The notes under the pieces: generated by a model
Database searches by the model: none
Told to the model about the DNA's origin: nothing
What the model saw: the letters and a program-made list of their open reading frames with translations, nothing else
Program-made: the position numbers and the translations under genes
From: Hypomesus transpacificus
Taxonomy: Eukaryota
Length of the DNA: 64,000 nucleotides
NCBI RefSeq assembly: GCF_021917145.1
Contig: NC_061076.1
Span: 13,096,768 to 13,160,767 of the forward strand
Direction: 5' to 3'
In this document: positions 8,216 through 30,300 of the stretch, one piece after another
Position numbering within the stretch: the first letter of the stretch is position 1
Layout: the number at the start of each line of letters is the position of its first letter

Positions 8216-10045
8216 CACATTCACAGGTGGTTGGGCCAGTCTTGAAGCCCCATCTCACCAGAGCATCTTTGGATCGTCCCTTTCCCGTTCTGAGGCGGTT
8301 GAGCATTTCCATTGAGCCCATGATGTTTCTGAGCCAGGGGGTAGGTTTTCAGTAGGGGGAATTCCATGCCAGTTGGAAGAGGGTCATTTTCAAATTCTCC
8401 ATCCAGAGTTGGATTCTGGATTCATCCCGAGACTTTGTTAGGGGTTGGACATGGCTGGGAAAGCTTTTTCTCTGACTCTGATCTAGGGCTATGGTGAGGT
8501 TTGCTTCTACTGCTTTGAAAGTTTTCTTGAGATGTTACACAAAGATCGTCGGCATAGATTAAACGCTCATTGTTCTGGTCCATTGGCTGGTCGTTGGTGT
8601 ACATGTTATATAGTAGTGGGGCCAGCATGCCACCTTGAGGTAGGCCATTTCGTTGTCGCCAGCTTGTTATTCAGGACAACAAAGAAGCGCTGTCTTTCAG
8701 GAGGGCTCCAATGAGGTCTGTAAGGTGCCAGGTCTTTTGTCATCTCTAAGATCCTTTTTAGGAGGAGATGATGGTTCACAGTAGCAGACAGATCAACAAA
8801 GACAGCTCCTGTTACCAGTCCTTTCTGGAATCCATCCTCAATGTGTTGTGAGTTTAAGAAGTTGGCTTGTTGTAGATTTGCCAGGTCGTAATCCAGCTTG
8901 TTGAGGGATGATGGCTGGTTCTGCAACAGGGGCAAGCCTGTTGAGAATCAAGCGTTCAAACAGCTTGTAGAGGTGGCATAGCAGAGAGATTGGGCGGAAG
9001 CTCTTTGCATGCGCTGGATCTTTGCTTGGTTTGAGAAGAGCAATAATCCTGGTTTTCCTCCAGATCTTTGGGAGGGCTTTTGTCAGCGTGCACTTATTCA
9101 TCAGCTGGAGGATCCATTTCCTCATTAGAGGTCCAAAATGCTTGATCTCTTCAGTGTAAATGTTATCCAGTCCGATGGCTTTACCGGTTTTAAGGGTGTT
9201 GATGCTGATGTTGAGCTCTTCAGGGGAGAACAGCTCAGTCAGTCCCATGGTTTGGGAGCTTTCCTCGATCTACCTTTGGTCTTGGCTGTTTAGTGGTGGA
9301 TTTCCCATTGTGCAAAAGCTGGTGCGCAACTTGGCAGTGGCCTTATACTGTTATTGAGTTGGGGTTGATGGGTTATTGCAGATTTTTCAGATGAGGCTCC
9401 ATGCCTTTTTGCGGTTCTTTGCCATATCAGTTGTCTCCAGCGGGTTTTTTCACTTCAGCTGGCAGCATTCTGTAATAGAGGCCATGAGTCTCTCACCTAC
9501 TTTGGTGGTAGTTTCAGCAAAGGGGTCAGATTAATAGAGCTGTTGGTATTGCTCTAACAGTTTTGTACTTGTGGCGTCAAAGCCCAAGATGTATTGGGTG
9601 TGGCAGCCTCTTGGGATGTTCTTGCTTGCTGCTTTGTGCACAAGCTTGGTGAACTTGTCATGATTCCTGGGGTCTGCTGGGAGATGGGCAATCTTCCTAT
9701 CAAGATCTTCTTGGAAGCCAGGCCAGTTTGCATTTCCAAAGTCGAATCTTCTTTGGAATGGAACTGTGGCTGTGGTTATTGCAGGATTGACTGTAATGCT
9801 GATAGGACGGTGTTGGGTCCTTGGCAGTGGCTCCAAGACTAGCTTTTTGCTTAATCCAGTGATCTTGTGGCTGACAAACGCAATATCAGGGCTGTAGCCT
9901 GCTGTACATCGTCCGCTGTTGAAGGACTTTGGCTGTTTTGCGTTGTGGATCAGATTAAGATGGCAGTTTTCGGCCCACATTTCTACTGCATCTCCATCTG
10001 TGTTGTTGGCATATCCATAATCCATAATGCCCTCCGACAAAAAAT
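8216..10045 (-). mobile_element. LINE ORF2 (AP-endonuclease plus reverse transcriptase), frame-broken and near full-length. Clade uncertain (RTE/Rex3-like or CR1-like).
   Basis: Minus ORFs contain endonuclease motifs 'FQRRFDFGNANW' and 'QHRPISITV', and RT motifs 'IGLDNIYTE', 'ALPKIWRKTRIIALLKPSKDP', 'FRPISLL', 'AGLRPGKSTTSQ', 'GAVFVDLSATVNHHLLL' and 'LIYADDLCV' (YADD box). A possible C-terminal 'CECGEATA' motif follows. Confidence 0.7.
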
Positions 10046-10599
10046 TAAAAATGAACGAAAGCGATCAGTTTGAGTTTTACTATCCATATCTAACTTCGGT
10101 TTTGGTGTATCAACCTCGTTAAAGCTCGGTCAATATGTTAAAGCCCAGTTTGATAATTACCGGCATGAACTCACTCTCAGTAAGTAGTTAGCCTTCACTA
10201 GTCATCCGAGATCAAAAATGCTAGCAACGCCACCAGTGTAATTTTACAACAATTTTACAGCACGAGACAGAAAATTTGAACAACAAATCAAATTGGTTGC
10301 CTGCAGAATGGGTCATCAAATATATAATTAATTAGCATCGGCATGAATGTGGTCCGCTTAGACAAAATACACTCAAATTCTGTCAGACCAACGCAAATGT
10401 GCTTCAAGGTCAAACGAAAATAGCAAATAAAATAAAAGTTAAACTACAATTCTAAATATCGCAAGAATACGATTTATATGATGGCTTATATACAATACAA
10501 CAACCAGACATTTAATTGACACATGTAGTACAATAATATAATATAAAAGTATACCGCGGTTGAAACGGTATAGCCAAATCTCTCCCATGTAGACACATT

Positions 10600-11715
10600 T
10601 CTACCGTCGCACAGTATATACCGTCTTATACCATGGTCTGGGTGAATACTCGATTCTGATTGGCTGCAGAGGTGTCCATTATCGGGTGATAACGGACACC
10701 TACTGCGTCATTGCAGCAAAACTGTCTTTTCACTGTTCTAAATTATTCCGCTGGCTACACAGGAGCCTGTACAAAATATCTGAAATAAGTAACCATAACA
10801 ACAGTGACGGAGTCAAAACCTACATTTACAATTTTGAAAGACTTTAACAAGCTAACTTGTATTTACAACAATGAGTGACTTCAATATTTATTTTAACCTA
10901 TTTGAAAAATGTTTCTTTTCTGAATGTGGTGTGTCAGTGTCATGTAACCGCTCATCTCACATCCCATTCGCTATTCACCTTGCTAGTCAATCTACTTCAG
11001 ACAGGCTACTGGCAAACACGACAGTGGCAGCAACTCTACACATGGCCGATCATTTTCTTCTTAAAAATCTTGATTTTTGGGGGGGACAATGACATGGCTC
11101 GATAGTTGCCTAGTCTTGTTGTTAAACATACTGTCAAATTATAATCACTGTTTGGAGAAAATGTAAACTTTGATGAGGTCATCTCACATCCATTTGCTAT
11201 TCAACTCGCTCCACAGGCTGCGGCCATACTGTAGCCTAGTACTAGTATATGGCCGATATTGTTCGTGAAAATCTTGATATTGATTTTGGGACAGTGACAT
11301 GGCTGGTTAGCTAGCAAATCTTATTGTCAAACATACTGTAAAATTATATTTACTGTTTCTCAACCGTACACAGTTATTGCCTCTGAATCTTACTATCCTA
11401 ACGTTAGCTTTCGGGCTAATTGCTCAGCCAAGGGGAAAGCCGGTGTTGGTTCTATGAGCTGAGCGGACTATAAAATATCAGAGTTGGCTAACGTAAAAAA
11501 ACATTTGATTTATTTAGCAAAACGCCTGAAAACATGTTTATTAATGTTTGTAAAAAAATTGTTGGCAAGTGACCATGGTATAAGCGGGATAATGCCCTTC
11601 GAGGTGTCCAATATCACTTGATAATGGACTCCGCGGAAGCTCCGCGTTGGACGGTTCACGCCTCTGCATCGTCCATTATCAGGTGATATTGGACACCTCA
11701 TCGGGCATTATCCCT
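10600..11715. repeat. Two related palindromic modules in opposite orientation, bracketing a ~0.9-kb segment that itself contains a ~190-bp tandem duplication (10950-11350).
   Basis: 10660-10689 holds the 30-bp palindrome 'ggtgtccattatcgggtgataacggacacc'. 11585-11712 is a 128-bp hairpin with 27-bp arms ('ggtgtccaatatcacttgataatggac' / 'gtccattatcaggtgatattggacacc') nested inside 'gggataatgccc'/'gggcattatccc'. The flanking 'accatggtataag' sequences are also inverted. Confidence 0.6.
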
Positions 11716-11799
11716 TTCATACCGCCCTGTCCTAGTACAGAATTTTCAAGTCAAATTCCATTGTGACTTCATGTACTGACATAACTGTTTCTCACCGAG

Positions 11800-12590
11800 T
11801 ACATTTTTACACCGTTAAACACTTTCCTGCCTGAATAGGCAGACTTTTTCCAATAATATACCTCAACTGTTAATACCATTTTGAAGACAATATGTAGGGC
11901 TTTCTAATGATGTGAATATGTATATGATTATGTTAGGCAAATCATCCTTTATCAAGAAGATTTTACGGAGCCATTCTGACAAAAATCTTCTCCGTCTGCA
12001 TTACTTTTTTAGAAAACCTCATTTTTAACCTATTTCAATACAAGATAGAGGACAGATTAGAAAATGTGCATAATGTTGTTGTGAATTCAGAACACCAGAC
12101 AGATTTAAGATAGACTATTTTGTTTAAAAGTTATGACCACTGAAGTGATGAGTGGGATAACACTATTTCAAGCTGGCACGATGGCTCTCCATATCTAAAA
12201 ACGGTTCAACTTTTTTCCACAATCGACCAAATTGGCCAAACAAGGTATGTACATTGAGCTTATAGTGTACATAATGTAGCAAGTTAATTTTTCTTTAAGC
12301 AAGTTTCACAGAAATCTGCAAAAATCGAGGCTCAACACTGTCATAGCTGACCGTCACTAACAGCCAAACCGGGGTTACAAAAGGTTCACTGCAGCTGGTG
12401 TTACTACGAACAAAGGCTTCGTAACTGATTTTTTTTTACTTTTAGTTGACAATATTCAACACAGACGTTAAGAAACTTGGCTTTACTCTAAATATATTTT
12501 CCGTTTTCAATTTGAAGCAGTAAATCTAACACAGTAGGAATTCTCCCACGACATCCACTCGCTCCGCTTTGACTAAAAAATGTTTTCTCA
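11800..12590 (+). repeat. Unclassified ~0.87-kb interspersed repeat, copy B. A partial copy D lies at 13050-13400.
   Basis: Collinear with 4400-5200 ('ttccacaatcgaccaaattggcca...cagtaaatctaacac...tctccca'). Confidence 0.7.
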
Positions 12591-13861
12591 GTCCACTACA
12601 CATTAGACAAGAACATTTTCGAGCACTTTCAATACAAGATGTTAGACGTTAGAGTTGATATATATACATAATTGTGTGGGCAATGTAGCCTGGCTGCCAG
12701 CCCAACTTCTCCCCGCCCACAATTTTTTTTTTTCGGGAAGTTGGGTCTGGAGGGTCTCGTATTGGGGACAACTACAGAAAACCAGAATCGGGACGGACCA
12801 ATGAAATTGCCAGGGCGGGCTTTATACGATGATGGACAGATGATCAACAGTAACGTAATCAACAACGTCACGAAAGAGCGCTTGGGTTGAATTCGTTTTC
12901 AACAAACACGTTGCTCTGATTGGTTGTTGGTCTATCCAATTGAGCGAAGAGGCATTTGTTTTACGAGTTCGGTTGAAACACGCCCCGTAGTCACAGCCCA
13001 ACGGAGAGTTTTCAGACTCATATTCTGACTAGAATTATGAGTTTGACAACGTCAGGCTATGGGCAATGTAGAACAGCAGACAGATTTGAAATATGATCTT
13101 TTGTTTGAAAGTTATGGCCATTCTAGTGACGAGTGCTTAAAACGCCAGCTACGACTGTCATCATAGCTGCCATAGAACGGCGAAACCAGGTCACATAGCT
13201 AGCTACGTCTATTGTTCGTTACCTACAAACAAATGCTTCGTAACAAAATTTACTTTTTCTCGATGATATTTACAACAGAGGTTAAGGAACTTGTCTTTAA
13301 TCAAAAGATTGTCTCCATTTTAAATTTAAAGCAGTATCCAGCTTACTGTAGGACATCTCCCATTGCATCCTCTCTCTACCTTCTTCAGCTAAAGATGGAC
13401 GACAATTACGATGCATGCATTATTCACGCCTACGGTGTTAATACAGTCTAAAAATACCACTTTGACACACTTCCAAGAAATGATCCGCTGGTTAGATGTA
13501 GCATGATCTTATTTACCATAGCTTTTGCAGTTGTACAACAAAGTCACGTTATGTGACGAGATTGAATTTAAAAGTATAAAAAACTCACAAGGGACAACGT
13601 CTACATCGGCAATCCTGCACTATGGATTATTATTTTGATGTCATCTTTAAATTAAGTGTCTGAACAGGACTGGTTTTGCCGGCACACATGATAAGTTTCT
13701 CCTCCATCTTGAACCTAAAATCTAGATTCTAAGTTAGAAATGTTGACAGTGACCAACGAACGGTTGCTACATTATAAGAAACAAGGAACCGATCCAGAAA
13801 AAGCTCTTCACTGTTCCACTGTTCAAACTTTTTTCTGCTTCTACATCTTTCAATTATGAAT

Positions 13862-14665
13862 ACTTTTCAGAATGGGTTTTATTCGCCAAGAAACATCACA
13901 CAGACAAGGAATTTACTGTGGCAGGAAGGTGCACACATTAAACATATAAGAAGCTTAAAAAAGAAGGTTAGAAGTCTAACTAATATTAAGGGGCAAAAAA
14001 TGTAAAAGGGTTAGAATGAAATAACATATAAAATGGCTATAATACAAATAGGGCAACAGTGCAATATGGCAAGATGTCTTGTGCAGATAAAGTGATAAGT
14101 CGTCAAGTCAGTGTGAGTCCTTTGCCTTGTTGAAGAGGCCAGCAGCGGATGGGAAGGAACTGTTTGTGTGGCGTGAGGTTTTGGTCCTGATGGACCGCAG
14201 ACTTCTGCCGGAGAGGAATGACTGAAACAGAGTGTGTCCAGGGTGGGAAAAGTCGGCGACAATCTTCCTTGCTCGCCTCAGGGTCCTCGAGGTGTGCAGG
14301 TCCTCTAGGGTAGGCAGATAGCAGCCGATCCCCTTTTCAGCAGTACCGATGATACGCTGCAGTCTGCTCTTGTCCTTGGCAGTGGCAAATGTGTACCAGA
14401 TGGTGATGGAGGAGGTGAGGATGGACTCAATGATGGCTGTGTAGAAGTGCACCATCATTGTCTTTTGCAGGTTGAATTTATTCAGCTGCCGTAGGATGTA
14501 CGTCCTCTGTTGTGCTTTCTTGCTGGGGGAGCTGATGTTCAGTTCCCACTTGAGGTCCTGGGAGAGGATAGTGCCCAGGAAGCGGAAGGACTCCACAGTG
14601 TTGACTGGCGAGTCGCACAGGGTGATGGGGGTGACTGTCTGAAGAGCATTGAGCTCTAACATAAC
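13862..14665 (-). mobile_element. L2/CR1-clade LINE copy B. It is 5'-truncated, carrying only the ORF2 C-terminal region, 3'UTR and tail.
   Basis: Minus ORF 14108-14662 'LELNALQTVTPITLCDSPVNTVESFRFLGTILSQDLKWELNISS...FYTAIIESILTSSITIWY' is co-linear with the 26410-26871 and 37165-37821 copies. The tail at 13865-13935 is the reverse complement of the 4137-4213 tail. Confidence 0.7.
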
Positions 14666-15222
14666 GCTTTAACATTTATAAAATTAAATAAGATACCCTT
14701 TTCGTCACTCGATTTTCTCCTTTTTCAACCGCAGGAAAATATTGCAATGCATAACAATGACAGATATACTTTTAACACTGTCTCAGCATTTTGGTTTCAA
14801 AGCAACACTTTTTTCACCTTCATACTGCTGACATACTTCTGTCTGCTATGATATTGATAACTGGTATGCAATATACTCATCACTATATTTGCTCATTTTT
14901 CTAACTTCAATCTTTTTTTCTGTTTCTCAGTCTTTCATTCTTTAATACTTTTAACCTTTTTAATTGTATGAAAACAAATCAGATACTCTTTTCATCAGTT
15001 TTTTCCTCAATGTTCAACAGTAAGAAAATATCGCAATGCATAACAATGACATATACTTTAAAAAAAAAATCCTCACCATTTTGTTTTTAAAGCACATACC
15101 TCTTTTAAAGAAAATAGTTAAACCTTTTTCACTATTTAAGCCATCAAAACAATTGTTACAACTGCTTTCAGCAAACACGCATATTTTCTTCAGGAAATGT
15201 ACCTTCCCAGCTATATAATTAA

Positions 15223-16087
15223 TAGGGCTGTCAAGAGATTAAAATATTTAATTGCGATTAATCGCATTATTTCATATGATTAATCGCAATTAATCGCAAA
15301 ATTATTCAATCTTAAAGTTTTACCCCAATAAATGATTTTTTTTGTGGAAATAACATTAAACGGGAGTTTTATTCACTCACAAACTATACTGCTGTATAAT
15401 AAACATCCACAAAATTAGACTTATTAGTCATGAACATATATTTGCAACCATTTTCCTAATTGAAAGGGCTAGGGGTAAACTAAGGGCTAGGGGTAAGGGG
15501 TAAGGGGGCGTATTGGGATTCGGCCTTATTATGGAATATAAAATACATTTAAGACATGTTGTCTCATAGCCTATTACGATATCCTGCTCCATAATATTCA
15601 AATCTCACTCAAACATACTTCATATACTTAAACAACCACAGATTGACCTTAATATTGAACAATACAGTTTATATCTTGTTGAACCCAGTCAGCTGCTAAC
15701 TTCTTTTGCAAGTGTTGTCTGCCATATATTACCGGAGCGAACGCTGCTGCTGCTGCTACCGCTACCCCTAACACTGCTAATGCTGCTGCTAGCTGTGTGC
15801 TTTCCTTGCATGTAATATTTTAGGCTGGAAGTACTCCGATGATAACTAAACTCAGCCTGACAATCAGTAGGCTACACACAGCCTTAGTTTTGTCAACCGA
15901 GCCGTCTCAGAACTTTTTGAATGGAACTTCCCATCTAAAATCCCTCTCTCCATCATTCAGCTACCGTCTGCAGCCGAAATCATGTGACGACAGGTGATTC
16001 CCAGGGACAAAAATAAACCTGCGTTAACGGCACTTTTCTTTTGTCGCGTTAAAATGAGATTGCATTAACGCGTTAATGACAGCCCCA
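15223..16087. mobile_element. Non-autonomous hAT element (MITE-like, 865 bp) with 8-bp TSD ATAATTAA.
   Basis: Terminal inverted repeats tagggctgtc... (15223) and ...gacagcccca (16078-16087). An identical 8-bp ATAATTAA flanks both ends (15215-15222 and 16088-16095). Subterminal 'gcgattaatcgc'/'gcgttaa' repeats and no ORF. Confidence 0.75.
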
Positions 16088-16195
16088 ATAATTAAATTAT
16101 TGTTATAATTGTCACATATATATACAGTATATATATGTGGAAATTACATATTAGGTATATTTATACACTATATAAATAAATACATTAACTTATTG

Positions 16196-16525
16196 GGCAG
16201 CACGGTGGCTCAGTGGTTAGCACTGTCGCGTCAGAGCAAGAAGGTCTCTGGTTCGAACCCCGCTTGCTCCAGGTCCTTTCTGTGTGGAGTTTACATGACT
16301 GTGGGTTTTCCGGGTACTCCGGTTTCATATGTTGGAATGTTGGTGGTGGTCGGAGGGGCCGTAGGTTGATTGGTAGCCACGCTTCTGTCAGTCTGCCCCA
16401 GGTCAGCAGCTCTGGCTACAGTATCGGCATACCACCACCGGTTTGACTGTGTCTGAATGAATACTGGACTCTGTAAAGCGACCTTGAGTACTTTGAGTTG
16501 TAGAAAGCGCTATATAAGATCAAAT
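16196..16525 (+). mobile_element. tRNA-derived SINE.
   Basis: tRNA-like head 'ggcagcacggtggctcagtggttagcactgtcgcgtcagagcaagaaggtctctggttcgaaccccg' with A/B-box-like segments, then body '...tgtgtggagtttacatg' and tail '...aaagcgctatataagatcaaataa'. This matches a widespread teleost SINE architecture and is not a functional tRNA. Confidence 0.7.
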
Positions 16526-16589
16526 AATACATGTACATATTTCAAAATGACGTTTTTGTACAGACGATTATTTATTTCATGGGACTTTT

Positions 16590-18660
16590 ATTTCCTAATG
16601 CCACATATATTCTGAACATCACATTTATTTCTGTGCTGTATTTATTTCCAATCCTACATGCAAGCGAGAGGGGCATGGTTATCTTCAGACCAAAGCAGCT
16701 GCACAAGATCGAAGGCAGATAGGGACACCTGGATTTGAGAGATGATGGAAGACATAAGTGGTGTCAGAGATGGCATGCTGGCCTTACAAATCAAATTGAT
16801 CAGCATGGCTTGTCAGGGGACATCATTTTGGCCATCATTAGGTACATAAGTGCTCTACGGAACATAGACATTGATCACAACGTCTTAAATAGTTTGAGAC
16901 GCATCAAGCACTGTGTTCGTGTGCAAGACGGCAAGTGTAGAAAGCCACCATGGGGCTAAAGAGATTAATTCTTTTTCTGCTGTTTATCAAAGGGTTAAGC
17001 GTATTTTGATCTTATTGTCTGGGTTAACAGCGACGATCTAAGTATTAATTTGTAATATGTAATGTCATAAGGGGCTGTAATATTGTGGTAAATAGGGCTA
17101 TTGCCTCGAGACAACCCAAATTATATGATTAGCCTACATTTGGGTAGTGTGCCCACGGTAACCAGGTGTTTTCGATGAACCCAAAACAAAATGTTGCTTG
17201 AATGCCAAGGTAGTTAATAAATAAGTGACTGAAAGGATATTTGATCCATAAGCAGCTCACATTGTAAAGCAGCGGACTAACGATATAATGTGTTTTTGCT
17301 CCAGTGCGATCGAATCCCACTTCATGCTAATTGCAAAGGTTTCATTTTCTTAGCCTACAGCAGCAAATATGAGATGCGACCTGAAAATCGCCAGCAAAGT
17401 TTGTGAATTTGTGACAAATCTGGTGATAGAGGCAGATGGCAGCTGCTGCTGTTGGGTGAACGCACACCTGTGCTACAGGGAGCTACCTGTATGGGGGGTG
17501 ACAGGTACCCTTGCACGGCCGAAAAGTGTACAATGTAGACAAGCTTTGCCCACAATGTCTGTGTCGTCTCTGTCTTTTTATCATTGGTTCCCAATGGGAG
17601 TGATGGCGGCGACGTAGTACGTGTGGGGACTTACGACCTAGCGCCAAAGTTACCTTTGTAACCTTGCATTAGCTTGTGTGATGTGTAACCCGTAGGCAAA
17701 GCACTGCCACCGCTACGTCTTCCTTTAGATGGTATCTTAGCTATAACCGGTCTCAAATTTGCAACTGTAGGGTAAGTGGCTGGCTAACTATCAATGGGGA
17801 AATTATAAAAGGACATCATCAGTGTGGCTATTTCAGCTAGCTAGTGTTGGGCTTTATTGGCAGAGACTTGAACAGCCAAAGCCGTTTTGTCACTGACTGG
17901 TCATTAAAACGTTAGTTAGTGGTTATAGTGGTTTGATTTAATATTGAAGAATTACATAAATTAAAATATCTGGGAATGGGGACTGTGTACCGTGTTGAAT
18001 GGGTCTTGGTCTGGAAACTTCTTGGTTAGTTGCAACTTTTAATTTCCAATATTGACAACACGTTTAGAAACTTAAGGATCGCCTCACTTTTCAATTTGAA
18101 GCAGTAAATCCAAAGGTATGGGTAATGTCTTGAATGGTCTGGCTTCACTTCCGGTCTCACTAGATGATAATACCGGCATGGCATAATGGTGAGGCTAGAT
18201 AGTTATAGCTAGCTGCCTAGCGTAGCGGTGGCAGTGATTGCCTTCTTTGTTAGGCGTAGCGACAGTTGCTAGAATTGTTAACATTACCTGGCACTAATCA
18301 ACCCCCAAACTACCTGTACATCTTGCACATAAACACGGTGCTTGATAAGTCTCAAACTATTTAAGACTTTGTGATCAATGTCTATGTTCTGCACTTACCC
18401 GCCCAAGTACCTCTTCAATGTGTGCCAAAATTATGTCCCCTGACAAGCCATGCTGATCAATTTGATCTATAAGGCCAGCATGCCATCTCTGACACCACTT
18501 ATGTCTTCCATCATCTCTCGAATCCAGGTGTCCCTGTCTGCCTTTGATCTTGTGCAGCTGCTTTGGTCTGAAGATAACCACGCCCCTCTCGCTTGCATGT
18601 GGGATTGGAAATAAATACAGCACAGAATTATGTCATCTTGAAGACTGTTGGTTTGAAAAA
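16590..18660. repeat. Large imperfect palindrome (inverted duplication / foldback-like) with ~0.35-1 kb diverged arms.
   Basis: 16600-16960 is the reverse complement of 18330-18660; ORFs 16735-16959(+) and 18375-18623(-) encode the same peptide 'DDGRHKWCQRWHAGL..QIDQHGLSGDIILA'. Weaker inverted similarity continues inward ('cactgccaccgctacg', 'tagctataac'). Confidence 0.65.
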
Positions 18661-19685
18661 CCATCAGTCAAAATTACATTTGATTTATTGACACATACAT
18701 TTCGAGGCAATGTGGACAATTACATTTTCTTAATTTTTCATAAGTAAAAAAATTGGAAAGACATCAATTCTATACCTGTGTACTTAATTTGAGGTGAATT
18801 GGATTTACGGTTCGAGAGAAGAAGAATTCTTTAGGTTTTCCCAAATGTTCACTGTACAGGAAAATCCATTGTGTGGTGAATTAGACCTACTTTTATCCAT
18901 CCATCATGTATGAGGAATCACCTACTGCATCACAGGCACTGTACTATCTATCTATAATTCCAGAAATCTGTGTGTGTGTGTATCTCACTGACATAACTGA
19001 CTGCATCAAGGGCACTGTGCACTCGTGTTAGTAATTTTATACGGATAACCAAAATAGAGTAGAGGCTGGATTTCAAGTATTTCTATTTGTTACAATACAG
19101 GGCTGTACAGACAGTGAACGAGTGCAAGATTGCACTCACTGGTCGCTGGTCACTTTACATTGATACATTTCTCACTAGTCACTTTACACACTGTCACCTT
19201 CAGTTCATGATTGCACTACTTTACCCCACTTGTCTTAGGTTAGTATAGGTCTTGTCTAAAGGTCAGTTAAGTCTATAAGGTTAGTATAGGTCATTATGTG
19301 TTAGAGGTCTAGTATATTGTATATTGCATACTATTTTGTATATTTAGGAGGTTTATTATTTTATTTCTATTCTATTTTAGCTTATCATAGATGTAATCTG
19401 TTTTCTTAGTACTTATATGTTGTGTTATGCCAGGTTGCTCGCGTTGTCTTGTCCCAAGACTTTCAGTGCCCAGTCTGACATTGTGTTGTTCTGTGCACCT
19501 GACAATAAAAAACTTGAAACTGCAAACATTTCCGTCCATGTCAAAGACTAGGCATGTATGATGATTCACCTTATCTATGGGTTATTCTACAGATGCACCT
19601 AATTAATGATCTAGGGCTTGACTGAACACAAATGAAGCCACTTGCAAAACTCCCTCCCAATGTGTGCCCAACTATTTCCTGTCAG

Positions 19686-19883
19686 GGTGGTGTTTGGCCC
19701 AGAGATGGTGATGCTGGGACCAGACGAGCAGTTTACAGTGCTGTCCCTGTCGGGGGATAAGCCCAAGAGGGCTAACGTCATCAAGACCATCTGTCTGCTC
19801 CTGGGGCCTGACTTCTTCACTGACATCATCACCATAGAGACAGCAGACCATGCCCGCCTACAGCTGCAGCTCTCATATAACTG
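19686..19883 (+). CDS. mvp: MVP coding exon: (R)[65 protein letters not shown](W).
   Basis: Acceptor tgtcag at 19680-19685 and donor GTAACA at 19884. Phase is continuous with the previous exon across an ~18.6 kb intron. Matches MVP '[29 protein letters not shown]...[28 protein letters not shown]'. Confidence 0.9.
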
Positions 19884-21908
19884 GTAACAGAGTGTTAATC
19901 AATGGTAACAGAGGGACAGCGTGTGTTTAGTCTATGTTAATGTGTGTATATTGTAATGTTTAATGTGTAAATACTATATCACTATGTGTATATTTTATAT
20001 GACCACTTCTAACATCTGTGAACAACACCAGTATATTTTGTAAACCAAGAAAGAGCTAGAGGAGAGGGGGAGCAGAACGCCCAGATTTTGGGAGCCACCT
20101 GGTTGTAGAAGGCTATGGACAGGACATGTAGGGCAGGATTCAGGGGGGGGCTGGGGTGGGCTGCGCCCCCCAGATTTCTGCCGCGCCCCCCCCAAGCTCC
20201 TTCTGACTTCAGCCAAAATGGTTACATGTTGAAGCTATGAAAAAGTCTGTTAGTGCTTTCAGTATTGCTTTTTTATTACCAATCTGTTTAAAAGATTCCC
20301 CAGTGATTGTCTGGTTGATAATGGGCAACTTAGGTTAGAACTCCGCATCCACGTTTACCGATAAAAGTGAAATCAACCTCGAATCTCTTGCCACTCACTT
20401 GTTCTCAAAATTATTGTATATCGGTCTTTTGTGGAGGGCTTTTGACGAATGGTAAAGTGTAGCATTGGTGTTTAATGTTAGACCCTGGAATTTCATACTT
20501 CTTTTTCAGTTGTAATCTTTATTTGTTTTCATAGAATATAAACGGGTTAAAGACGTTAACAGTAGTCTTTTTGCTTTGTTAGCCATCGATTGTTCTTTGC
20601 GTGGGTGTTTGTACCTACAAAGAAAACCTTTTATCAGGCATCGATTTCTGATCCCCAAACCATCTACTACTGCCTCTGCGACAAGGGATATTAAACTCAT
20701 ACTCCAGAGCAGGCAGAGCTTGCTGGTCCTAGTGGAAGCACTTCCCTGTCTCTCGGTACCAACGTTACCGCTGCTGTGGGTGAAGGCGAGCATGGTTTGA
20801 ATCCAATGCAGCCTGTTCTGCAAACATTTTCAGCGCGTTTTCATCCAAGGTCCTAGGGCATCGCTCTCAAACTTGGTTAGAATACTCAGTCAAGCTACAT
20901 GCATATTTCTACTTCCCTTGTCGACAATTTGGAGCCAGAAATGATAGACATCACCTTCATAGACAAGGTTTTTACCAATTGGAAAACGGCGGCGGTTTAT
21001 TTTACATAGAGCTCAAAAAACTATTTTGCGCTCAAATGAAAGCCCAAAACTTTCGCTCATGCGCTGGGTGCGCTCGCACTGTAAAGGATCCTATCCAGCA
21101 TCAGATCAAACCCAGGATATGTCCTGGGTCTGGGTTAAGCCCCAAATGTGTATAACATCTGGCTCCGTGCCTGATTAACACTCGGATCTTTAAGCAGACT
21201 CAAAAATAATAAAAAATGGTTAATAAAATAAATTATACAACCCCCTTCCATAATCATGATGCCCCCCCAGTCAAAGCAGGCTGCATCCGGCCCTGAGGAC
21301 ATGGAAGCTCTTATCGGGTCAATTGAGTACAGTGGCCATTTTGACACCAAGATATCAGGAATAGTCACAAGGGAACCACAGTTATGACCAAGTGTACATG
21401 AGTGACTGGACGCTTAAGTCTGCAAATTTAGAATGTTGCAAAAAAAGTTAATGGCTGTTTTGGAGGAAATGCTCTACATGGTTGGCTTGTTTTGACCTTT
21501 GGGAATGTAACCAGACCATTTTTGTTGGGATGTTTTGCATAATTCGACAACTTCGAGACTTGTTAGGTGAGCAGTTTGCTTTCACTTTGTTTACGTGTTC
21601 GTGGTCGAACAAAGACGTTGATTGTGCTGTTGTGACTCAATCCTGAAATGGTTTACATCAGTAGAATCACAAGAATCGTAGCTTTCCAACGATATATGGC
21701 ATGTGTAGCACTCAAACAATATTTAGTTGTTTAGTACTGAAAAATCAGCCGCCGGGCCGTGGAAGGTTATTAATCACCGTACCAATATAAAAGCTTTAGA
21801 CCCATCAGCTCACCCAATTAATCTCCTTCCCATGAAAATAGACAACTGTTTAGACAACTGTTTATCTTCTAAATATATGTTGTCCCTTCTTCTTTCAATC
21901 TCTTTCAG

Positions 21909-22053
21909 GCATTTTGATATTAAATCTCGAGAGGATCTGGTGGCGGCTGCAGCTCTTTTCTCTGTGCCAGATTTTGTTGGTGATGCATCCAAAGCAATCG
22001 CCTCCCGTGTCAGAGGAGCTGTTGCCTCCGTGCAGTTTGACGACTTCCACAAG
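21909..22053 (+). CDS. mvp: MVP coding exon: (W)[48 protein letters not shown].
   Basis: Acceptor tttcag at 21903-21908 and donor GTCTGA at 22054. Matches MVP '[48 protein letters not shown]'. Confidence 0.9.
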
Positions 22054-22815
22054 GTCTGACAGTTAATAGTTGCCAGTTTAAACAAGTCCTTCTTGACAAT
22101 TTATTTATGTTGTTTTCTAGGTCTGTCTTTTACGGCAGCGTATTGCTGCCACACCAGAAAAGAAAAAAACGGATCAGTATCACATTATAACGTGATATGT
22201 TTCTTGTTATAACAACATGTGTATCACATTATAACAAGTTATTTTCATGTTACAACGTGCTGCAAACGTGGACGTTATAACAAAATAACAACTTGAAATA
22301 ACATGAATAGTTTAGTGTTATAATGAGAAGGGCTGGGAGGTAGATCCCTTCCCCCAGTATCCTGTTGTGAACTGTGCACTAGTTATAGGCACTTAATTGG
22401 CCTTTTGCAATGAACTACTATTACCATAGCCCAAAATACGGACGTACCACTGTTGAGATTTCTACGTAATCGCTGTGTACCAGAAGAGTACCTCCCACGC
22501 ATGGAACAAGAACATGTAAGTACATTTTTACTTAGGCCAGTTCTTGTAAAAACCTGTATTTTATTCCAATGTTACATTGTGCATGGTTAGCAAAAGTTAG
22601 CTAGCCAGCCAGCCTGAGTGGCACAGTCCAAAAGTGTAATCTTTTTACACTTCTTTCTTTTCTTGGCGCTTGCTCGATGAGAAAGTCACGCAACGCTATG
22701 TAATTAAGTTGAATCAGCTGCATAGTGTTGGTTAGGGTACCGCCATCACCAGAGTGAAAGCCGGTGCTTCATACACACAAATCGCTGAAGGCTGTGTTTG
22801 ATTTGTTGTTCCCAT

Positions 22816-24417
22816 ACAGTTCTTTGCAAAAGTATTGATCCCCCATGGCGTTTTTCTTATTTTGTTGTCTTACAACAATTTATTTTTATTTGGATTTCAT
22901 ACAATGGACATACACAAAATAGTTAAAAAATTGTTGAAGTGAAATGAAAAAAATAACTTGTTTCCAAAAATTCTAAAAAATAAATCACGTAAAAGTGGTG
23001 CGTGCATATGTATTCACCCCCTTTGCTATTAAGCCTCTAAATAAGATCTGGTGCAACCAATTACCTTCAGAAGTCACATTATTAGTTAAATAAAGTCCAC
23101 CTGTGTGCAATCTAAGTGTCACATGATCTCAGTATATATAGACCTGTTCTGAAAGGCCCCAGAGTCTGTAACACCACTAAGCAAGGGGTGCCACTAAGCA
23201 AGGGGCACCATGAAGACCAAGGAGCTCTCCAAACAGGTCAGGGACAAAGTTGTGGAGAAGTACAGATCAGGGTTGGGTTATAAAAAAATATCCAAAACTT
23301 TGAATATCCCACAGAGCACCATTAAAGCCATTATAAAAAAATTGAAAGAATATGGCACCACAACAAACCTGGCAAGAGAGGGCCGCCCACGGAAACTCAC
23401 GGACCAAGCAAGGAGGGCATTAATCAGAGAGGCAACAAAGAGACCCAAGATAACCCTGAAGGATCTGCAAAGCTCCACTGCAGAGATTGGAGTATCTGTC
23501 CATAGGACCACTATAAGCCATACACTCCACAGAGCTGGGCTTTACGGAAGAGTGGCCAGAAAAAAAGCCATTGCTTAAAGACAAAAAATAAGCAAACACG
23601 TTTGGTGTTCGCCAAAGGCATGTGGGAGACTCCCCAAACATATGGAAGAAGGTACTCTGGTCAGATGAGACTAAAATTGAGCTTTTTGGCCATCAAGGAA
23701 AACGCTATGTCTGGCGCAAACCCAACACTGCTCATCACCCCGAGAACACCATCCCCACAGTGAAGCATGGTGGTGGCAGCATCATGCTGTGGGGATGTTT
23801 TTCATCGGCAGGGACTGGGAAACTGGTCAAAATTTAAGGGATTATGGATGGCGCTAAATACAGGGAAATTCTTCAGGGAAACCTTCAGTCTTCCAAAGGT
23901 TTGAGACTGGGACGGAGGTTCACGTTCCAGCAGGACAATGACCCTAAGCATACTGCTAAAGCAACACTTGAGTGGTTTAAGGGGAAACATTTAAATGTAT
24001 TGGAATGGCCTAGTCAAAGCCCATACCTCAATCCAATTGAGAATCTGTGGTATGACTTAAAGATTGTACACAAGTGGAACCCATCCCCCCCCCAAAAAAA
24101 TATCCCAGTGTCTAGATGTGCCAAGGTTATAGATACATACCCCAAGAGACTTGCAGCTGTAATTGCTGCAAAAGGTGGCTCTACAAAGTATTGACTTCGG
24201 GGGGGGGGGGGGGGGGTCAATAGTAATGCACGCTCAAGTTTTTAGTTTTTTTGTCTTATTTCTTGTTTGTTTCACAATAAAAAATATTTTGCATCTTCAA
24301 AGTGGTAGGCATGTTGTGTACATTAAATGATACAACCCCCCCCCAAAATCCATTTTAATTCCAGGTTAAAAGGCAACAAAATTCTAAGGGGGGTCAATAC
24401 TTTTGCAAGGCACTGTA
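22816..24417 (+). mobile_element. Tc1-like DNA transposon, full-length (~1.6 kb). Both TA-flanked terminal inverted repeats are present and the transposase is lightly frame-broken.
   Basis: Left end 'tacagttctttgcaaaagtattgatcccc'; right end '...gggggtcaatacttttgcaaggcactgta'. ORFs 23210-23578 (HTH), 23622-23837 ('[11 protein letters not shown]') and 23844-24194 ('FQQDNDPKHT...EWPSQSPYLNPIENLW') together form a Tc1 DDE transposase. Confidence 0.85.
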
Positions 24418-24689
24418 CGTGACTATTGGGAGTCGCTTTGCATTGCGGATAAATAATAATCATCTAAAGAAGTTACAAAGTGCACAGATAGAAACTCAAG
24501 GCTCCAGTACAGTTAATACAGTCAGCCAAACCCTGCCAGAACACCACCTACCACTCTGTCTTTCCTTTCGGTGTGTGTGCATGAGCGTGTGCATAGTGTG
24601 GTGGGGGAGGGTGTTCCAGGTGTTCCCAGCTTTGTCTTGAGTTGTAATAATATTGTCTGTCTTCACAGATTGATGCGACGATCATTGAC

Positions 24690-26056
24690 TGTATGGACAA
24701 TGACTGCATATGGCAATCGAATAGCCGCAAGACGCTTCTGTTTGGAGAAACAAGGTGCAACAAAGTGCAAAACAATCAAAAAAACATTCATTGCTTGAAA
24801 AATTTAAGAAAAAGATGGGTATCGATGAGAATGATGATAGGAAATCTGATCATGCGGAGGCTTCTGCTTCAAAAGAAGAAAAATTACCCAAAAAACTATA
24901 AATGGGCTGAAAAGAAGACCAGAAAAGTTGAGGTGGGTGGATTCATGAAGGTAAACAAGTAAGAAAACACAGAGGTAGGGGAATAAGGACCCTTAAAATA
25001 CCCAAGGAGTCCAAAAAAGCTGACATGTTACAGTATGCTGAAGACCTTTTCTTCCCAAATGGGCAAAGTACATTTGGAAGATGTGAGACACTCAGTCATG
25101 ACATATTAGACTATCAAGAGGAAGCTGTATTTGATGAAGATACCACAGTTGGGGAACTATACACAGCACTAGGAATGGGAGTGTTAAGGTTCTACCTGTG
25201 TTACTAAGAGCCTGATAGATGACGATGATGGAGGACATGATGGGGAAAAATCAGATGGACACAAATGAATGAGATAAGCAAGTTACTCAAACCGTTGTCA
25301 TCCTGTCACCAGATTGGAAGTAAGTTGATGTGACTGCATTATTAGATGCAAATGGTGTCTCTGAAGATGTGTGTGCAGTATTTTGGGCAGAGTTTATGGA
25401 CCACACAGCTGAAAGGGAAGAACTTAGGGTTCCATCACTGTCTCCTAAATGGCAGGAAGAAGAGTGGAAATCAATTGTCCGAATTCTACTTCAGGGATTT
25501 CAAAACTATGGATACTTTCCCTGTCATCTTGCCCGTCTTCACAGTGGCACTTATTTTTGGTGAGAATGAAGTGTCAGATGAAATCCTGTTCGAAAGTCTT
25601 CTCCTGTACAGAAATCAGTCAGATAGAGATCTGATAACCGCTGCATTAAAGGAAGATTTTTTTGATGAGGACAGGGATGAACCACTTGATCTTTTGGACC
25701 GCTTGGATGCAACAACACTTCCAATACAAAGTAATTTGAAAGCCCTCCTTCTAAAAGTAGCGCACAAGCAGTTGATCCAAAAACCAAGATATGCAGCAGA
25801 TAGTGTTTCATTAGTTGCTAGCCACTTCTTAAAAGAAGCGTTTGTGAGGCCACAAGAAATGTATGAGGATAAAAAGAAGAAAGCTTTTGAAGTTGATGCA
25901 AGCATCTCCCAAAACCGTTTCCTGCAACAGTACACCCAAGGACTGTGTGATTGTTGTTTGTTGAATAGGCATGAAGCCAAACCAAAAGTCTTGAAAAGCC
26001 ATCAATATGCTCCACTTATGCATATAACATATGGCTTTAGTTTGTCAATGTGCCAC
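24690..26056 (+). other. Cluster of same-strand ORFs of unknown affinity (24693-24962, 25025-25207, 25330-25563, 25346-26116). The last is 256 aa long, but its 3' end runs into a Tc1 terminus.
   Basis: Long open frames in an AT-rich intron with no motif I can assign to a TE family or host domain. Example: '...ILFESLLLYRNQSDRDLITAALKEDFFDEDRDEPLDLLDRLDATTLPIQSNLKALLLKVAHKQLIQKPRYAADSVSLVASHFLKEAF...'. Confidence 0.3.
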
Positions 26057-26244
26057 ATAAAATTAGGCCCAGGGTTAATGTATACAGTGAGGGAAAAGAT
26101 TATTAGATTCCCTTGATTTTGTACGTTTGCCCACTGGCAAAGAAATTATCAGTCTATAATTTTAATGGTAGGTTTATTTGAACAGTGAGAGACAGAATAA
26201 CAACAACAAAATCCAGAAAAACGCATGTCAAAATTGTTATAAAT
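26057..26244 (+). mobile_element. 5' terminal fragment (terminal inverted repeat plus leader) of a second Tc1 family, split from its remainder at 27889-28903.
   Basis: 'tacagtgagggaaaagattattagattccc' is the inverted match of the 3' end 'ggggatcgaataattatttccctcactgta' at 28874-28903. Confidence 0.6.
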
Positions 26245-26383
26245 GGGTCACCGGTTAGGGAGTCGGGCTATTAATCAGAAGGTTGTTGGTTCGATTCCTG
26301 GCCATGCAAAATGAGGTTGTGTCTGTACTTACTGTAAGTCGCTCTGGATAAGAACGTCTGCTAAATGACTAAATGTAAATAAA
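26245..26383 (+). mobile_element. HpaI-like tRNA-derived SINE with an L2-type tail.
   Basis: Head 'gggtcaccggttagggagtcgggctattaatcagaaggttgttggttcgattcctggcc'. Tail 'tgtaagtcgctctggataagaacgtctgctaaatgactaaatgtaaataaa' is the reverse complement of the L2 3' tail at 45040-45075. Confidence 0.7.
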
Positions 26384-26479
26384 TTGATTTGCATTGAAGT
26401 GAGTGAAATTTGTATATGACCCCTCTCAATCAGAAAGATTTCTGGCTCCCAGCAGTCTTTTATACAGTTAACAAGCTGA

Positions 26480-27888
26480 GATTTGGAGCACTCCCTTTAA
26501 GAGTGTCCACCTGGTGCAGCCAGAACAACCTAGAGCTCAATGCTCTCAAGACAGTGGAGATGGTTGTGGACTTCAGGAAGAACGCAGCCCCACTCACCCC
26601 CATCACCCTGTGTGACTCCCCAGTCAACACTGTGGAGTCCTTCCGCTTCCTGGGCACTATCCTCTCCCAGGACCTCAAGTGGGAACTGAACATCAGCTCC
26701 CTCACCAAGAAAGCACAACAGAGGATGTACTTCCTGCGGCAGCTGAAGAAATTCAACCTGCCAAAGTCGATGATGGTGCACTTCTACACAGCCATCATTG
26801 AGTCCATCCTCACCTCCTCCATCACCATCTGGTACGCTGCTGCCACTGCCAAGGACAAGAGCAGGCTGTAGCGTATCATCCGCTCTGCGGAGAAGGTGAT
26901 TGGCTGCAATCTGCCTTCCCTCGAGGACCTGCACACCTCGAGGACCCTGAGGTGAGCGAAGAAGATTGTGGCCGACTCCTCCCACCCTGGACACTCCTTG
27001 TTTCAGTCACTCCCCTCCGGCAGAAGGCTGCGGTCCATCAGGACCAAAACCTCACGCCACACAACCAGTTTCTTCCCTTCCGCTGTTGGCCTCCTCAACA
27101 AGGCCAAGAGTTCACACTGACTGTAGCGACCACAAGAATGTCGCTGAGAGGCTAAGTAAGGGAGATTCACTTGAGTGACGTGCTGCCATCAATTTCAATG
27201 TCCGCTCTGGAAGTTACGTTCTTCTGTTTATTTATAGGCAGATACATATATTTCTTGAACAGGACAGCAGATAGAAAAGTGCAAGTGCTTCTGTGCAAAG
27301 TAGCGATATAAAAAAATACATGCAATTCTTCCAGTAAGCGTTTTAGTTAATCCAAAATTCCAATAGTCAGCATATTGAGCGGTCAACAAAAAAAGTGCTC
27401 TCCCTACTCACCCCCTTGCCATACTACCACAGGTGCCCAGGTGCATATATTAATTCACTAATTCCTATGCCAATACCCACGTGACTTGCATACACACCCA
27501 CCAGATACCAAAATAAAAGCACCAAAGCACAGACCAATTCAACCATGGCATATGGCTGCTATACTGACTTTAATGACTTCATGTCTTAAAACAATTGCAT
27601 TTGCACTACTCACAATTCGTGTAATATTTGTATTTTAGACTGTATTTTATACTGTAAATTGGCAACTTATATTTCATTTTATGGCAACTTATATTTTATT
27701 TTATTGTATATTTTATTTTAATTGTATTCCACTTAGTATTGCTAGTTTATGTATCCTTAGTATAGTTAGACCATATATCTACATTTAAGATTCCTATATG
27801 TTTATTGTATGCACCTTCCTGCCAAAGCAAATTCCTTGTCTGTGCAAACTTTCATGGCGAATAAATCCCATTTCTGATTCTAATCTCA
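26480..27888 (+). mobile_element. L2/CR1-clade LINE copy C (5'-truncated: ORF2 C-terminus plus 3'UTR plus tail), inserted into the Tc1 element.
   Basis: ORF 26410-26871 'LELNALKTVEMVVDFRKNAAPLTPITLCDSPVNTVESFRFLGTILSQDLKWELNISS...' and the conserved tail at 27803-27888. Confidence 0.7.
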
Positions 27889-28903
27889 TTTCGTTCCCTG
27901 TATTAAAACATTTGTCCACAGAAGCAATCAATCAATCAGATTCTAATCTCTACACCATGGCCAAGACCAAAGGGCTGTCCAAGGATGTCAGGGACAAGAT
28001 TGTAGACCTACACAAGGCTTTAATAGGCTACAAGACCATCGCCAAGCAGCATGGTGAGAAGGTGACAACAGATGGTGCGATTATTCGCAAATGGAAGAAA
28101 CACAAAAGACCTGTAGATCTCCCTTGGTCTGGGGCTCCATGCATCTCACCTTGTGGAGTTGCAATGATCATCAGAACGGGAACGGGAGGAATCAGGCCAG
28201 AACTACACGGGAGGATCTTGTGAATAATCTCAAGGCAGCTGGGACCATGGTCACCAAGAAAACAATTGGTAACACACTACGCTGTGAAGGACTGAAATCC
28301 TGCAGCGTCCGCAAGGCCCCCCTGCTCAAAAAAGCACATGTACAGGCCCATCTGAAGTTTGCTAATGAACATCTGAATGGTGAACTGGGTGAAAGTGTTG
28401 TGGTCAGATGAGACCAAAATCGAGCTCTCTGGCATCAACTCAACTCGCGAACGCACATACCATACGTGTTTGGAGGAGGACAACAGGACAGGACAAGTCT
28501 CCAGACCATAATCCCATAGAAAATCTGTGGAGTGAGCTGAAGGTTTCAGTTGCCAAACATCAGCCTCGAAACCTTAATGACTTGGGGAAGATCTGCAAAG
28601 AGGAGTGGGACAAAATCCCTCCTAAGATGTGTGCAAACCTGGTGGCCAACTACAAGAAATGTCTGACCTCTGTGATGGCCAACAAGGGTTTTGTCCCCAA
28701 GTACTAAATCATCAATCATGTTTCGCAGAATCAATTTATTACAATTTTGATGTGTTTTTCTGGATTGTATTGTTGTTTTTCTGTCTCTCATTGTTCAAAT
28801 AAACCAACCATAAAAATTATAGACTGAATTTCTAGAATTTCTTTGTCTGTGGGCAAATTTCCAAAATCAGCAGGGGATCGAATAATTATTTCCCTCACTG
28901 TAT
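27889..28903 (+). mobile_element. Remainder of the split Tc1 element, with an internally deleted transposase.
   Basis: ORFs '[38 protein letters not shown]', '...KKAHVQAHLKFANEHL...[11 protein letters not shown]' and '...[64 protein letters not shown]'. The DDE core between 'WSDETKIEL' and 'DNPKH' is missing. The 3' terminal inverted repeat ends 'cactgta'. Confidence 0.75.
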
Positions 28904-29075
28904 GCGTCTCCTTCGGGGATTTCTTTGTCTTTGCTCAACACCACAGGGTTCTAGAAACTTCAGCTTTTTTATTTTCTGGTGTTGCAGCAATACGCTGTCA
29001 TAGAGAAAGACTAAGTTATTGGCTGTCTAAAAAAAATTCCATTCCAAAAAATACATTCTGCTCCCATGTACACAG

Positions 29076-29287
29076 AATTCTAACCGCATCATCTGCTCGG
29101 CGGTATTCGGCTTCGATGACAAACTGACTGTACGCTCCAGTTTCCGCTTCAGCCAGAACGGTCTAGTGATCAGCAGTGTGGACATTCAGTCAGTAGAGCC
29201 CGTGGACCAGCGGACCCGTGATGCCCTGCAGAAGAGTGTCCAGCTGGCCATTGAGATCACTACCAACTCTCAGGAGGCAGCTGCACG
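29076..29287 (+). CDS. mvp: MVP coding exon: [70 protein letters not shown](R).
   Basis: Acceptor cacag at 29071-29075 and donor GTCAGA at 29288. Matches MVP 'NSARIIRTAVFGFE...[45 protein letters not shown]'. Confidence 0.9.
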
Positions 29288-30001: not shown

Positions 30002-30300
30002 ATGGCTAGCAAATGGACAGTTGCTCAGTGTTTGGATGTACAAATCAAAACAAAAGTATTTTTGAAATTCCTTCATCCAAGCCTCTGCACAACCAGTATC
30101 TTAATTTTATTTTCACTGGAAATGCGCCGACACAACTTTCCAAAGTTCTGTATGTCTGCGCCAAACATTTCAGCCACTACTGTTTCCTCTACTTGAGCCA
30201 ACACAAAGCTGCCCTTGCTGAAATTAAATTCTGGCTCATTACTAACTCTCCTTGGTCAAGCTACAAACCTTGGACAAGTAAGTTAACTAACGCTATATAA
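30002..30300 (+). pseudogene. THAP-domain-like fragment (frame-broken).
   Basis: 'CSVFGCTNQNKS.IFEIPSSKPLHNQYLNFIF...VCAKHFSHYCF' has C-x2-C...C-x2-H spacing and an 'F.FP' motif typical of THAP zinc fingers. Possibly a P-element or Kolobok remnant. Confidence 0.35.

Follow-up and report, generated by a model that had tools for sequence, protein, structure and literature searches.

What gave rise to the protein-like open reading frames (ORFs) that lie within an intron of mvp in Hypomesus transpacificus? A sequence-only reading of the window, meaning the whole stretch of 64,000 nucleotides analysed here, had described a cluster of four same-strand ORFs starting at 24690, the longest of 256 aa, situated between a Tc1 element and a Tc1 terminus and matching no transposase, reverse transcriptase or integrase signature. 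Two sources had been proposed for it: a nested or retro-copied gene, and the protein of an uncharacterised transposable element (TE) family.

The ORFs are frames of one decayed gene

Same-strand ORFs were indeed present on the + strand between 24690 and 26116, and both of the peptide strings that had been cited were located in the 256-aa ORF (Table 1). When the window peptides were searched on their own against Pfam and PDB sequences, no useful match emerged, and the HECT profile was among those left unmatched. Three-frame translation showed that the ORF pieces continue one another across frame changes, which suggests one decayed gene and not four. Using a frame-joined query of 413 aa against a large protein database, 74 proteins were matched with a best E value of 8e-143 and up to 72% identity, far above chance. 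The named matches were all teleost proteins of ~630-670 aa, annotated either as ‘uncharacterized protein LOC…’ or as ‘HECT domain-containing protein’. The first ORFs of the cluster correspond to the ubiquitin-like domain of these proteins, the 77-aa and 256-aa ORFs to the HECT N-lobe. The ORFs are pieces of one decayed HECT gene: they are real, as the sequence-only reading had stated, but they represent frames of a single frameshifted exon and not separate genes. The missing transposase, reverse transcriptase or integrase signature had been noted correctly, because the protein is a HECT-type ligase homolog.

Regarding the limits of the cluster, its start had been set too late, as homology begins at 24669 and a separate small exon 1 lies further upstream. 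At the other end, homology to the HECT protein stops near 25951, before the end of the 256-aa ORF. The last ~55 codons of this ORF consist of an antisense transposase remnant followed by the end of a Tc1 element and are therefore not part of the HECT protein.

The intact HECT gene of the related element L001 consists of a 31-codon exon 1, an intron of ~670 bp and one large exon 2. The window copy keeps this two-exon layout: exon 1 runs into a GTAAGT donor at 22516, and exon 2 opens with ATT behind a …CACAG acceptor, whose polypyrimidine tract spans 24655-24668. The exon 1 match (22435-22533), ~2.1 kb upstream of exon 2, was found by tblastn with many family members, and no in-frame ATG is left in it. 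Residues 10-560 of the family protein P0001 map by tblastn to 24700-25960 in all three frames, so that the exon 2 remnant covers the end of the N-terminal helical domain, the ubiquitin-like domain and most of the HECT N-lobe. Compared to the closest intact gene (L003), exon 2 shows 87.5% nucleotide identity over 1331 nt, and the alignment ends at codon ~557. The exon is damaged by stop codons and by at least 10 indels that shift the frame, and ~350 nt (~120 codons) have been lost from its interior. For the last ~70 HECT residues, which hold the catalytic Cys, tblastn found no match within the 64-kb window. The window copy is an inert molecular fossil, because its start codon is lost, its frame is shifted at least 10 times, an internal stretch is deleted and the catalytic lobe is gone.

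The same 64-kb search gave a second ‘HECT-like’ match at 27831-28010 (+), to HECT residues ~400-465 with 30-35% identity and E values down to 5e-5. This match overlaps the N-terminus of the second Tc1 transposase (…LSDEDRDELLDL) and was judged to be due to chance or composition.

Table 1. Features of the mvp intron and its flanking exons, in window coordinates.
Feature	Position	Strand	Details
Upstream mvp exon	21909..22053	+	Pfam MVP_shoulder, E 2.9e-22 with the downstream exon joined
IS3EU/GingerRoot-type element, whole	22131-29002		Inverted termini of TACGG…CCGTA type
Left terminal inverted repeat	22131..22251	+	Terminus TACGGCAGCGTATTGCTGCC; 72% over 122 nt to both terminal repeats of the intact L001 element
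HECT exon 1 remnant	22435..22515	+	NTDVPLLRFLRNRCVPEEYLPRMEQEH, then GTAAGT donor; tblastn P0005 aa 4-36, 61% identity
Tc1/mariner element in HECT intron 1	22817..24415	+	TA-flanked, 45-nt inverted ends; Pfam HTH_SB, HTH_Tnp_Tc3_2, DDE_3
Decayed HECT exon 2	24669..25951	+	tblastn P0001 aa 10-560, three frames
ORF	24693-24962	+	89 aa
ORF	24755-24901	+	48 aa
ORF	25025-25207	+	60 aa
ORF	25330-25563	+	77 aa
ORF	25346-26116	+	256 aa
DDE transposase remnant	25935..26084	-	~aa 120-171 including the IDGFSR...WLHAYSTNN block; tblastn P0075, P0076, P0083, P0090, E ~5e-14; DNA match to L001 15068-15215 and L002 13948-14096
Second Tc1 element, inside transposase remnant	26085..28900	.	Inverted ends 26082-26113 / 28872-28903, plus further arms
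Transposase remnant, far side of second Tc1	28903..28963	-	Matches L001 15224-15284 and L002 14110-14156
Right terminal inverted repeat	28960..29002	+	...GCAGCAATACGCTGTCATA, decayed form of ...CGCTGCCGTA; 43 nt, 86% complementary to 22131-22173
Downstream mvp exon	29076..29287	+	MVP_shoulder, joined with the upstream exon

Architecture of the intact protein

Intact family members of ~630-670 aa open with a small helical domain at the N-terminus, which is followed by a beta-grasp domain of the ubiquitin-like type, an acidic linker modelled with low confidence, and a divergent HECT domain whose catalytic Cys is placed ~35 residues from the C-terminus. With a Pfam HECT cut-off of 23.9 bits, three of the family proteins (P0001, P0005 and P0013) and the oyster ORF scored 29.8-34.5 bits; the Danio aesculapii ORF scored exactly the cut-off (23.9 bits) and P0002 fell below it (20.2 bits). 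An AlphaFold model of P0005 was poor overall (pLDDT 56.5, pTM 0.32). Its confident parts were the helical region (~5-65), the beta-grasp (119-216) and much of the HECT N-lobe (430-560), and the HECT C-lobe was of low confidence. Foldseek and a PDB profile search ranked HECT domains first (HUWE1, NEDD4L, UBR5, AREL1), weakly, with E values of ~1e-3 to 1e-2; all fold matches had E > 1e-3. In the case of the ubiquitin-like domain, Pfam gave a sub-threshold match only, to DUF7676. The N-terminal helical domain had been considered as a SAM domain; neither Pfam nor the PDB profile search supported this, and it is left unnamed.

The family thus resembles the cellular HECT E3 ligases (NEDD4, NEDD4L, HUWE1, AREL1, UBR5) in that intact members pass the Pfam HECT threshold, align with NEDD4L and HUWE1 at the start of the N-lobe and at the catalytic Cys motif of the C-lobe (…AHTCGP.LELP.Y…), and carry this Cys at the same distance from the C-terminus. 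It differs from them by its high divergence (E ~1e-3 to solved HECT domains) and by an N-terminus made up of helical domain, ubiquitin-like domain and acidic linker. Furthermore, the family gene is transposon-encoded and multi-copy, the enzyme is a putative ligase, and the window fragment is without the catalytic lobe.

The surrounding element and the growth of the mvp intron

The placement of the cluster in an mvp intron held up: the two flanking exons match MVP_shoulder, and the mvp assignment is therefore right. The intron extends from 22054 to 29075, of which 77 nt before the transposon and 73 nt after it (~150 bp) are its own sequence. As only these nucleotides lie outside the transposon complex, an intron of ~150 bp has grown to ~7 kb, first by insertion of the IS3EU element and later by two Tc1 elements that landed inside it. 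The HECT gene is oriented in sense relative to mvp.

The left end of the element reads TACGGCAGCG at 22131 and the right end …CGCTGTCATA at 29002, a decayed CCGTA. The left terminus is near-identical to that of the Epinephelus element L004, and 22131-22251 matches two inverted sites in L001. In the left repeat 121 nt align to L001; the right repeat has only 43 nt left after a deletion. Between the repeats, ~2.7 kb are deleted relative to L001; the deletion took the HECT C-lobe, the sequence between the two genes and the greater part of the transposase, so that the HECT exon is now joined directly to the transposase remnant. Another ~690 bp of inner sequence adjoining the right end is deleted. 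The two transposase pieces are contiguous in L001 and L002, and 25937-26076 together with 28903-28963 match one unbroken stretch ~2.4 kb downstream of the L001 HECT gene; in all, the window copy keeps ~75 transposase codons. Both Tc1 landmarks of the sequence-only reading were found, the upstream element with its Pfam domains and the downstream terminus beginning at 26085, which is the edge of the second Tc1. At the ends of the window element, no 6-bp target duplication is recognisable (GTCTTT vs GAGAAA).

Taken as a whole, the ORF cluster is very probably what remains of the accessory gene of a cut-and-paste DNA transposon of IS3EU/GingerRoot type, which inserted in sense into the mvp intron when the latter measured ~150 bp. 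The assignment to this superfamily is based on structural hallmarks and on the Pfam integrase-core match of the transposase. The proposed ‘protein of an uncharacterised TE family’ came close to this result: the protein does belong to a TE, as a non-transposase gene between inverted termini, but the element fits a superfamily that had already been described, and the feature in the window is a dead copy of it.

Some further details of the window element were seen. Its flanks at 22125-22130 and 29003-29011 show partial inverse complementarity to each other: read on the opposite strand, the right flank gives GTCTTTCTC. The second Tc1 is composite, with a tRNA-like SINE (~26245-26385, recognised by eye) and a LINE fragment. 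The latter is a C-terminal reverse-transcriptase piece at 26410-26871, whose ORF matches the Pfam model named ALKBH8_N.

Intact relatives of the element

Intact relatives in fish measure ~6.4 kb and show terminal inverted repeats (TIRs) of ~200-250 bp, TA…TA termini and clean 6-bp target-site duplications (TSDs). The L001 element (9640-16017, 6378 bp) has perfect TIRs of 201 nt, TACGG…CCGTA ends and the TSD GATTAC, and it carries a HECT gene (+) and a transposase gene (-) in convergent orientation. Its transposase matches Pfam PF24764 ‘Integrase core domain’ (E 1.7e-25), and some transposase homologs also match PF00665 rve; the intact length is ~385 aa. Likewise, a TACGG terminus was seen together with a TSD in the elements of Epinephelus (L004, CTTTAC, repeats of ~250 nt), Coilia grayii (L005, CTCTGT), Antennarius (L007, CAACAG, repeats of ~240 nt) and a sea cucumber (L009, CAATCA). 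The termini of the relatives read TACGGAAGCG…CGCTTCCGTA. Long repeats ending in TATGG were present in the Danio aesculapii element (L010), and no clean TSD was found at the ends of these repeats. At the loci of Astyanax mexicanus (L002) and oyster (L008) no paired termini were found, and at L006 the right terminus was found without a partner.

The transposase family gave 1199 matches from teleosts, sturgeon, bichir, frog, echinoderms, molluscs, insects and a hemichordate, and the zebrafish protein zmp:0000000984 is 88% identical to the L001 transposase. Two copies of the element in the firefly Photinus pyralis (L011 and L012) are 99.87% identical over 6.3 kb. Because of this identity, and because L001 has perfect repeats and an intact TSD, the comparison suggests recent or ongoing activity in those genomes.

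Some of these loci also contain other sequences. The Epinephelus element bears a nested hAT-like insertion at 15423-17560 (Dimer_Tnp_hAT), and at the Coilia locus another pair of 327-nt inverted repeats (TTATGTCCC…) at 8917-20947 overlaps the IS3EU copy. Annotated gene models at both loci fuse TE genes. A FIIND-CARD gene lies at L001 3433-4929, ~5 kb from the intact element, probably by coincidence.

A HECT gene as partner of the transposase

The convergent pair of HECT and transposase genes was also seen in Coilia and Nothobranchius, and in Mugilogobius the two genes are adjacent by their locus tags. In the case of distant families, the search began from the transposase and the neighbouring gene on the opposite strand was then examined. 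In Pacific oyster, a HECT gene adjoins the transposase on the opposite strand, with 39.5-39.9% identity over its full length. Danio aesculapii has a HECT gene by the transposase with ~31% identity, an intact ORF of 673 codons and again a small exon 1. In the firefly, a HECT gene accompanies the transposase in both copies (33-40% identity), and the sea-cucumber element L009 was without one. Judged by these loci, IS3EU/GingerRoot elements from three animal phyla carry a HECT-like gene as a regular component.

The catalytic motif H634-T635-C636-G637 was invariant in all 34 of the 34 aligned fish family members. The oyster, D. aesculapii and firefly ORFs keep its Cys as well; the window copy has lost it by deletion. 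Among fish copies, pairs with unsaturated dS gave dN/dS values of 0.17-0.29; the HECT gene is under purifying selection in these copies. An exhaustive profile search with a limit of E ≤ 1e-30 returned 803 clusters (50% identity); many are full length, and the named members include proteins of pearl oyster and grass carp.

Pairwise identities of transposase and HECT protein were compared for four elements, and their ranks agreed for the closest pair only. An argument from co-phylogeny was thus set aside, as the identities are only partly congruent. For the same reason we grade co-inheritance of the two genes no higher than likely. On the other axis of comparison, between hosts, the HECT genes of Coilia grayii L005 and Astyanax mexicanus L002, i.e. 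a clupeiform and a characiform, differ by a dS of 0.28, and those of several other distant fish pairs by 0.56-0.76. Such low values for host splits of this age hint at possible horizontal transfer of the element.

Alternative explanations

Could the remnant instead derive from a host HECT gene of the ordinary, non-mobile kind, as a pseudogene that segmental duplication has placed in the mvp intron? In many teleosts, NCBI annotation treats family members as ordinary genes (‘uncharacterized protein LOC...’), the Astyanax locus shows no paired termini, and the window copy keeps an intron, all of which could be read in this sense. However, the inverted termini in the window agree with the ends of mobile copies from other species, the copy is followed by a remnant of the element's transposase in the position and orientation seen in intact elements, and intact copies elsewhere carry perfect TIRs and TSDs. 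The termini and the transposase remnant largely refute a host-gene pseudogene, which we consider very unlikely. A retro-copied (processed) gene fragment would fit the fact that most of the coding sequence forms one continuous block without internal introns, but the intact gene likewise encodes this block in a single exon. Moreover, ~550 bp of non-Tc1 sequence remains of the conserved intron between the donor at 22516 and the acceptor at 24668, a poly(A) tail is missing, and at the 3' end a deletion has fused the copy to the transposase gene. Because the intron is retained, a retrocopy is excluded, and we find it scarcely credible. The nested or retro-copied host gene of the sequence-only reading is therefore not supported, given the conserved intron (GT at 22516, AG at 24667-24668), the transposon termini on both sides and the transposase remnant that follows.

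It is also conceivable that the remnant was co-opted, with mvp drawing an alternative exon, or a regulatory element, from its sense splice sites or from pieces of its ORFs. The HECT gene shares the orientation of mvp, the consensus GTAAGT donor and the acceptor with its polypyrimidine tract are still there, and the transposon ends lie 77 and 73 nt from the mvp splice sites. Stops and frameshifts nevertheless break every reading frame, and a divergence of ~12.5% with many indels looks neutral, which makes co-option highly improbable. Chance open frames in AT-rich intronic DNA, finally, could account for the failure of window pieces alone to match anything in Pfam and PDB searches. In view of the E value of 8e-143 among 74 proteins and of the 87.5% nucleotide identity to an intact gene over 1331 nt, we give this explanation no credence at all. 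The decayed accessory gene of an IS3EU/GingerRoot-type element is thus the reading that we retain.

Relation to known transposons and possible function

GingerRoot elements have been described by a 6-bp TSD, TA..TA termini, TIRs of 100-150 bp and an integrase-related DDE transposase (PMC6839031), and IS3EU elements by TA..TA termini and a 6-bp TSD (PMC10045372); fungal IS3EU ends read TAYGG..CCRTA (PMC12730594). According to a paper from 2025, IS3EU structure and function are largely unexplored (PMC11934779). The relatives of the window element share these features with Repbase IS3EU (e.g. zebrafish IS3EU-1_DR) and Selaginella GingerRoot (PMC6839031, PMC10045372), having 6-bp TSDs, TACGG…CCGTA ends, long repeats and an integrase-like DDE transposase of ~385 aa. 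The host range also agrees with what has been reported (fish, oyster and other animals), the transposase family occurring in Danio, Oryzias and Crassostrea. Unlike the published accounts examined, in which the transposase occurs alone or, in fungi, together with an alpha-kinase and TET/JBP, the elements described here carry a HECT gene. The window copy itself differs further, as it has no recognisable TSD and has lost the larger part of both the transposase and the right repeat.

In the literature searched, no HECT or ubiquitin-ligase gene was described in IS3EU/GingerRoot elements, though Repbase entry notes may record the ORF. To our knowledge, no HECT ligase encoded by a eukaryotic transposon has been reported earlier, and this one would be the first. 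Enzymes of the ubiquitin and ubiquitin-like systems are otherwise found in several transposons: ULP1-type proteases are encoded by some Mutator-like, Ginger1 and Zisupton elements, and OTU proteases by some Helitrons. These elements resemble the present ones in that, besides the transposase, such an enzyme is conserved in the element lineage. Theirs are however deconjugating proteases, often fused to the transposase, whereas here a separate gene of the conjugating (E3) type is found.

The closest parallel in layout is offered by fungal IS3EU elements, which carry an alpha-kinase gene opposite to the transposase, with or without a TET/JBP dioxygenase, the latter being thought to act against silencing (PMC12730594). 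Both groups share the superfamily hallmarks and combine the transposase with an oppositely oriented second enzyme gene, thought to help against the host; they differ in that the accessory enzyme here is a ubiquitin-like/HECT protein and not a kinase or dioxygenase, and in that the hosts are animals. Because fungal elements carry an alpha-kinase and sometimes a TET/JBP enzyme thought to counter silencing, by analogy a host-manipulating role of the HECT accessory enzyme is plausible.

A working model can be outlined from established DDE transposase and HECT ligase biology, in which the part given to the HECT protein in transposition is purely our inference. The transposase would bind the repeat-rich ends, excise the element at its TA termini and integrate it with staggered cuts of 6 bp. 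The HECT protein would be charged with ubiquitin by a host E2 at its catalytic Cys and pass it on to a target whose modification aids the element, possibly a factor of host silencing, chromatin or repair, or else the transposase. Our tentative suggestion, which we hold to be possible rather than probable, is that animal IS3EU/GingerRoot elements of chordates, molluscs and arthropods carry a selected second gene, a ubiquitin-like plus HECT-type E3, which manipulates the host ubiquitin system for transposition or for escape from silencing. If the ligase is active, these elements would provide a testable case of a transposon with its own E3 enzyme.

Consequences for gene annotation

At the level of the locus, a previously unassignable ORF cluster is now fully explained as a fossil of nested transposons. 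At the level of databases, hundreds of the ‘HECT domain-containing’ clusters are probably transposon genes and not expansions of host families. A warning for annotation follows, namely that the 803 clusters from the profile search could be misread as growth of a host gene family. If the suggested second gene is true, it would explain many of the ‘uncharacterized HECT-domain’ expansions, and possibly ‘G2E3-like’ ones, in fish and invertebrate annotations. Unclassified fish repeats have been reported to give G2E3-like matches, and a sea cucumber to have a ‘G2E3 expansion’ of 20 copies (PMC5638112, PMC9700323). Such gains in G2E3-like copy number may be related to the elements described here, in which case the reports may need re-reading.

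As a last observation in the window, the next mvp intron contains a THAP zinc-finger ORF at 30022-30261 (+) (Pfam THAP, E 7.5e-07), presumably part of another mobile element.
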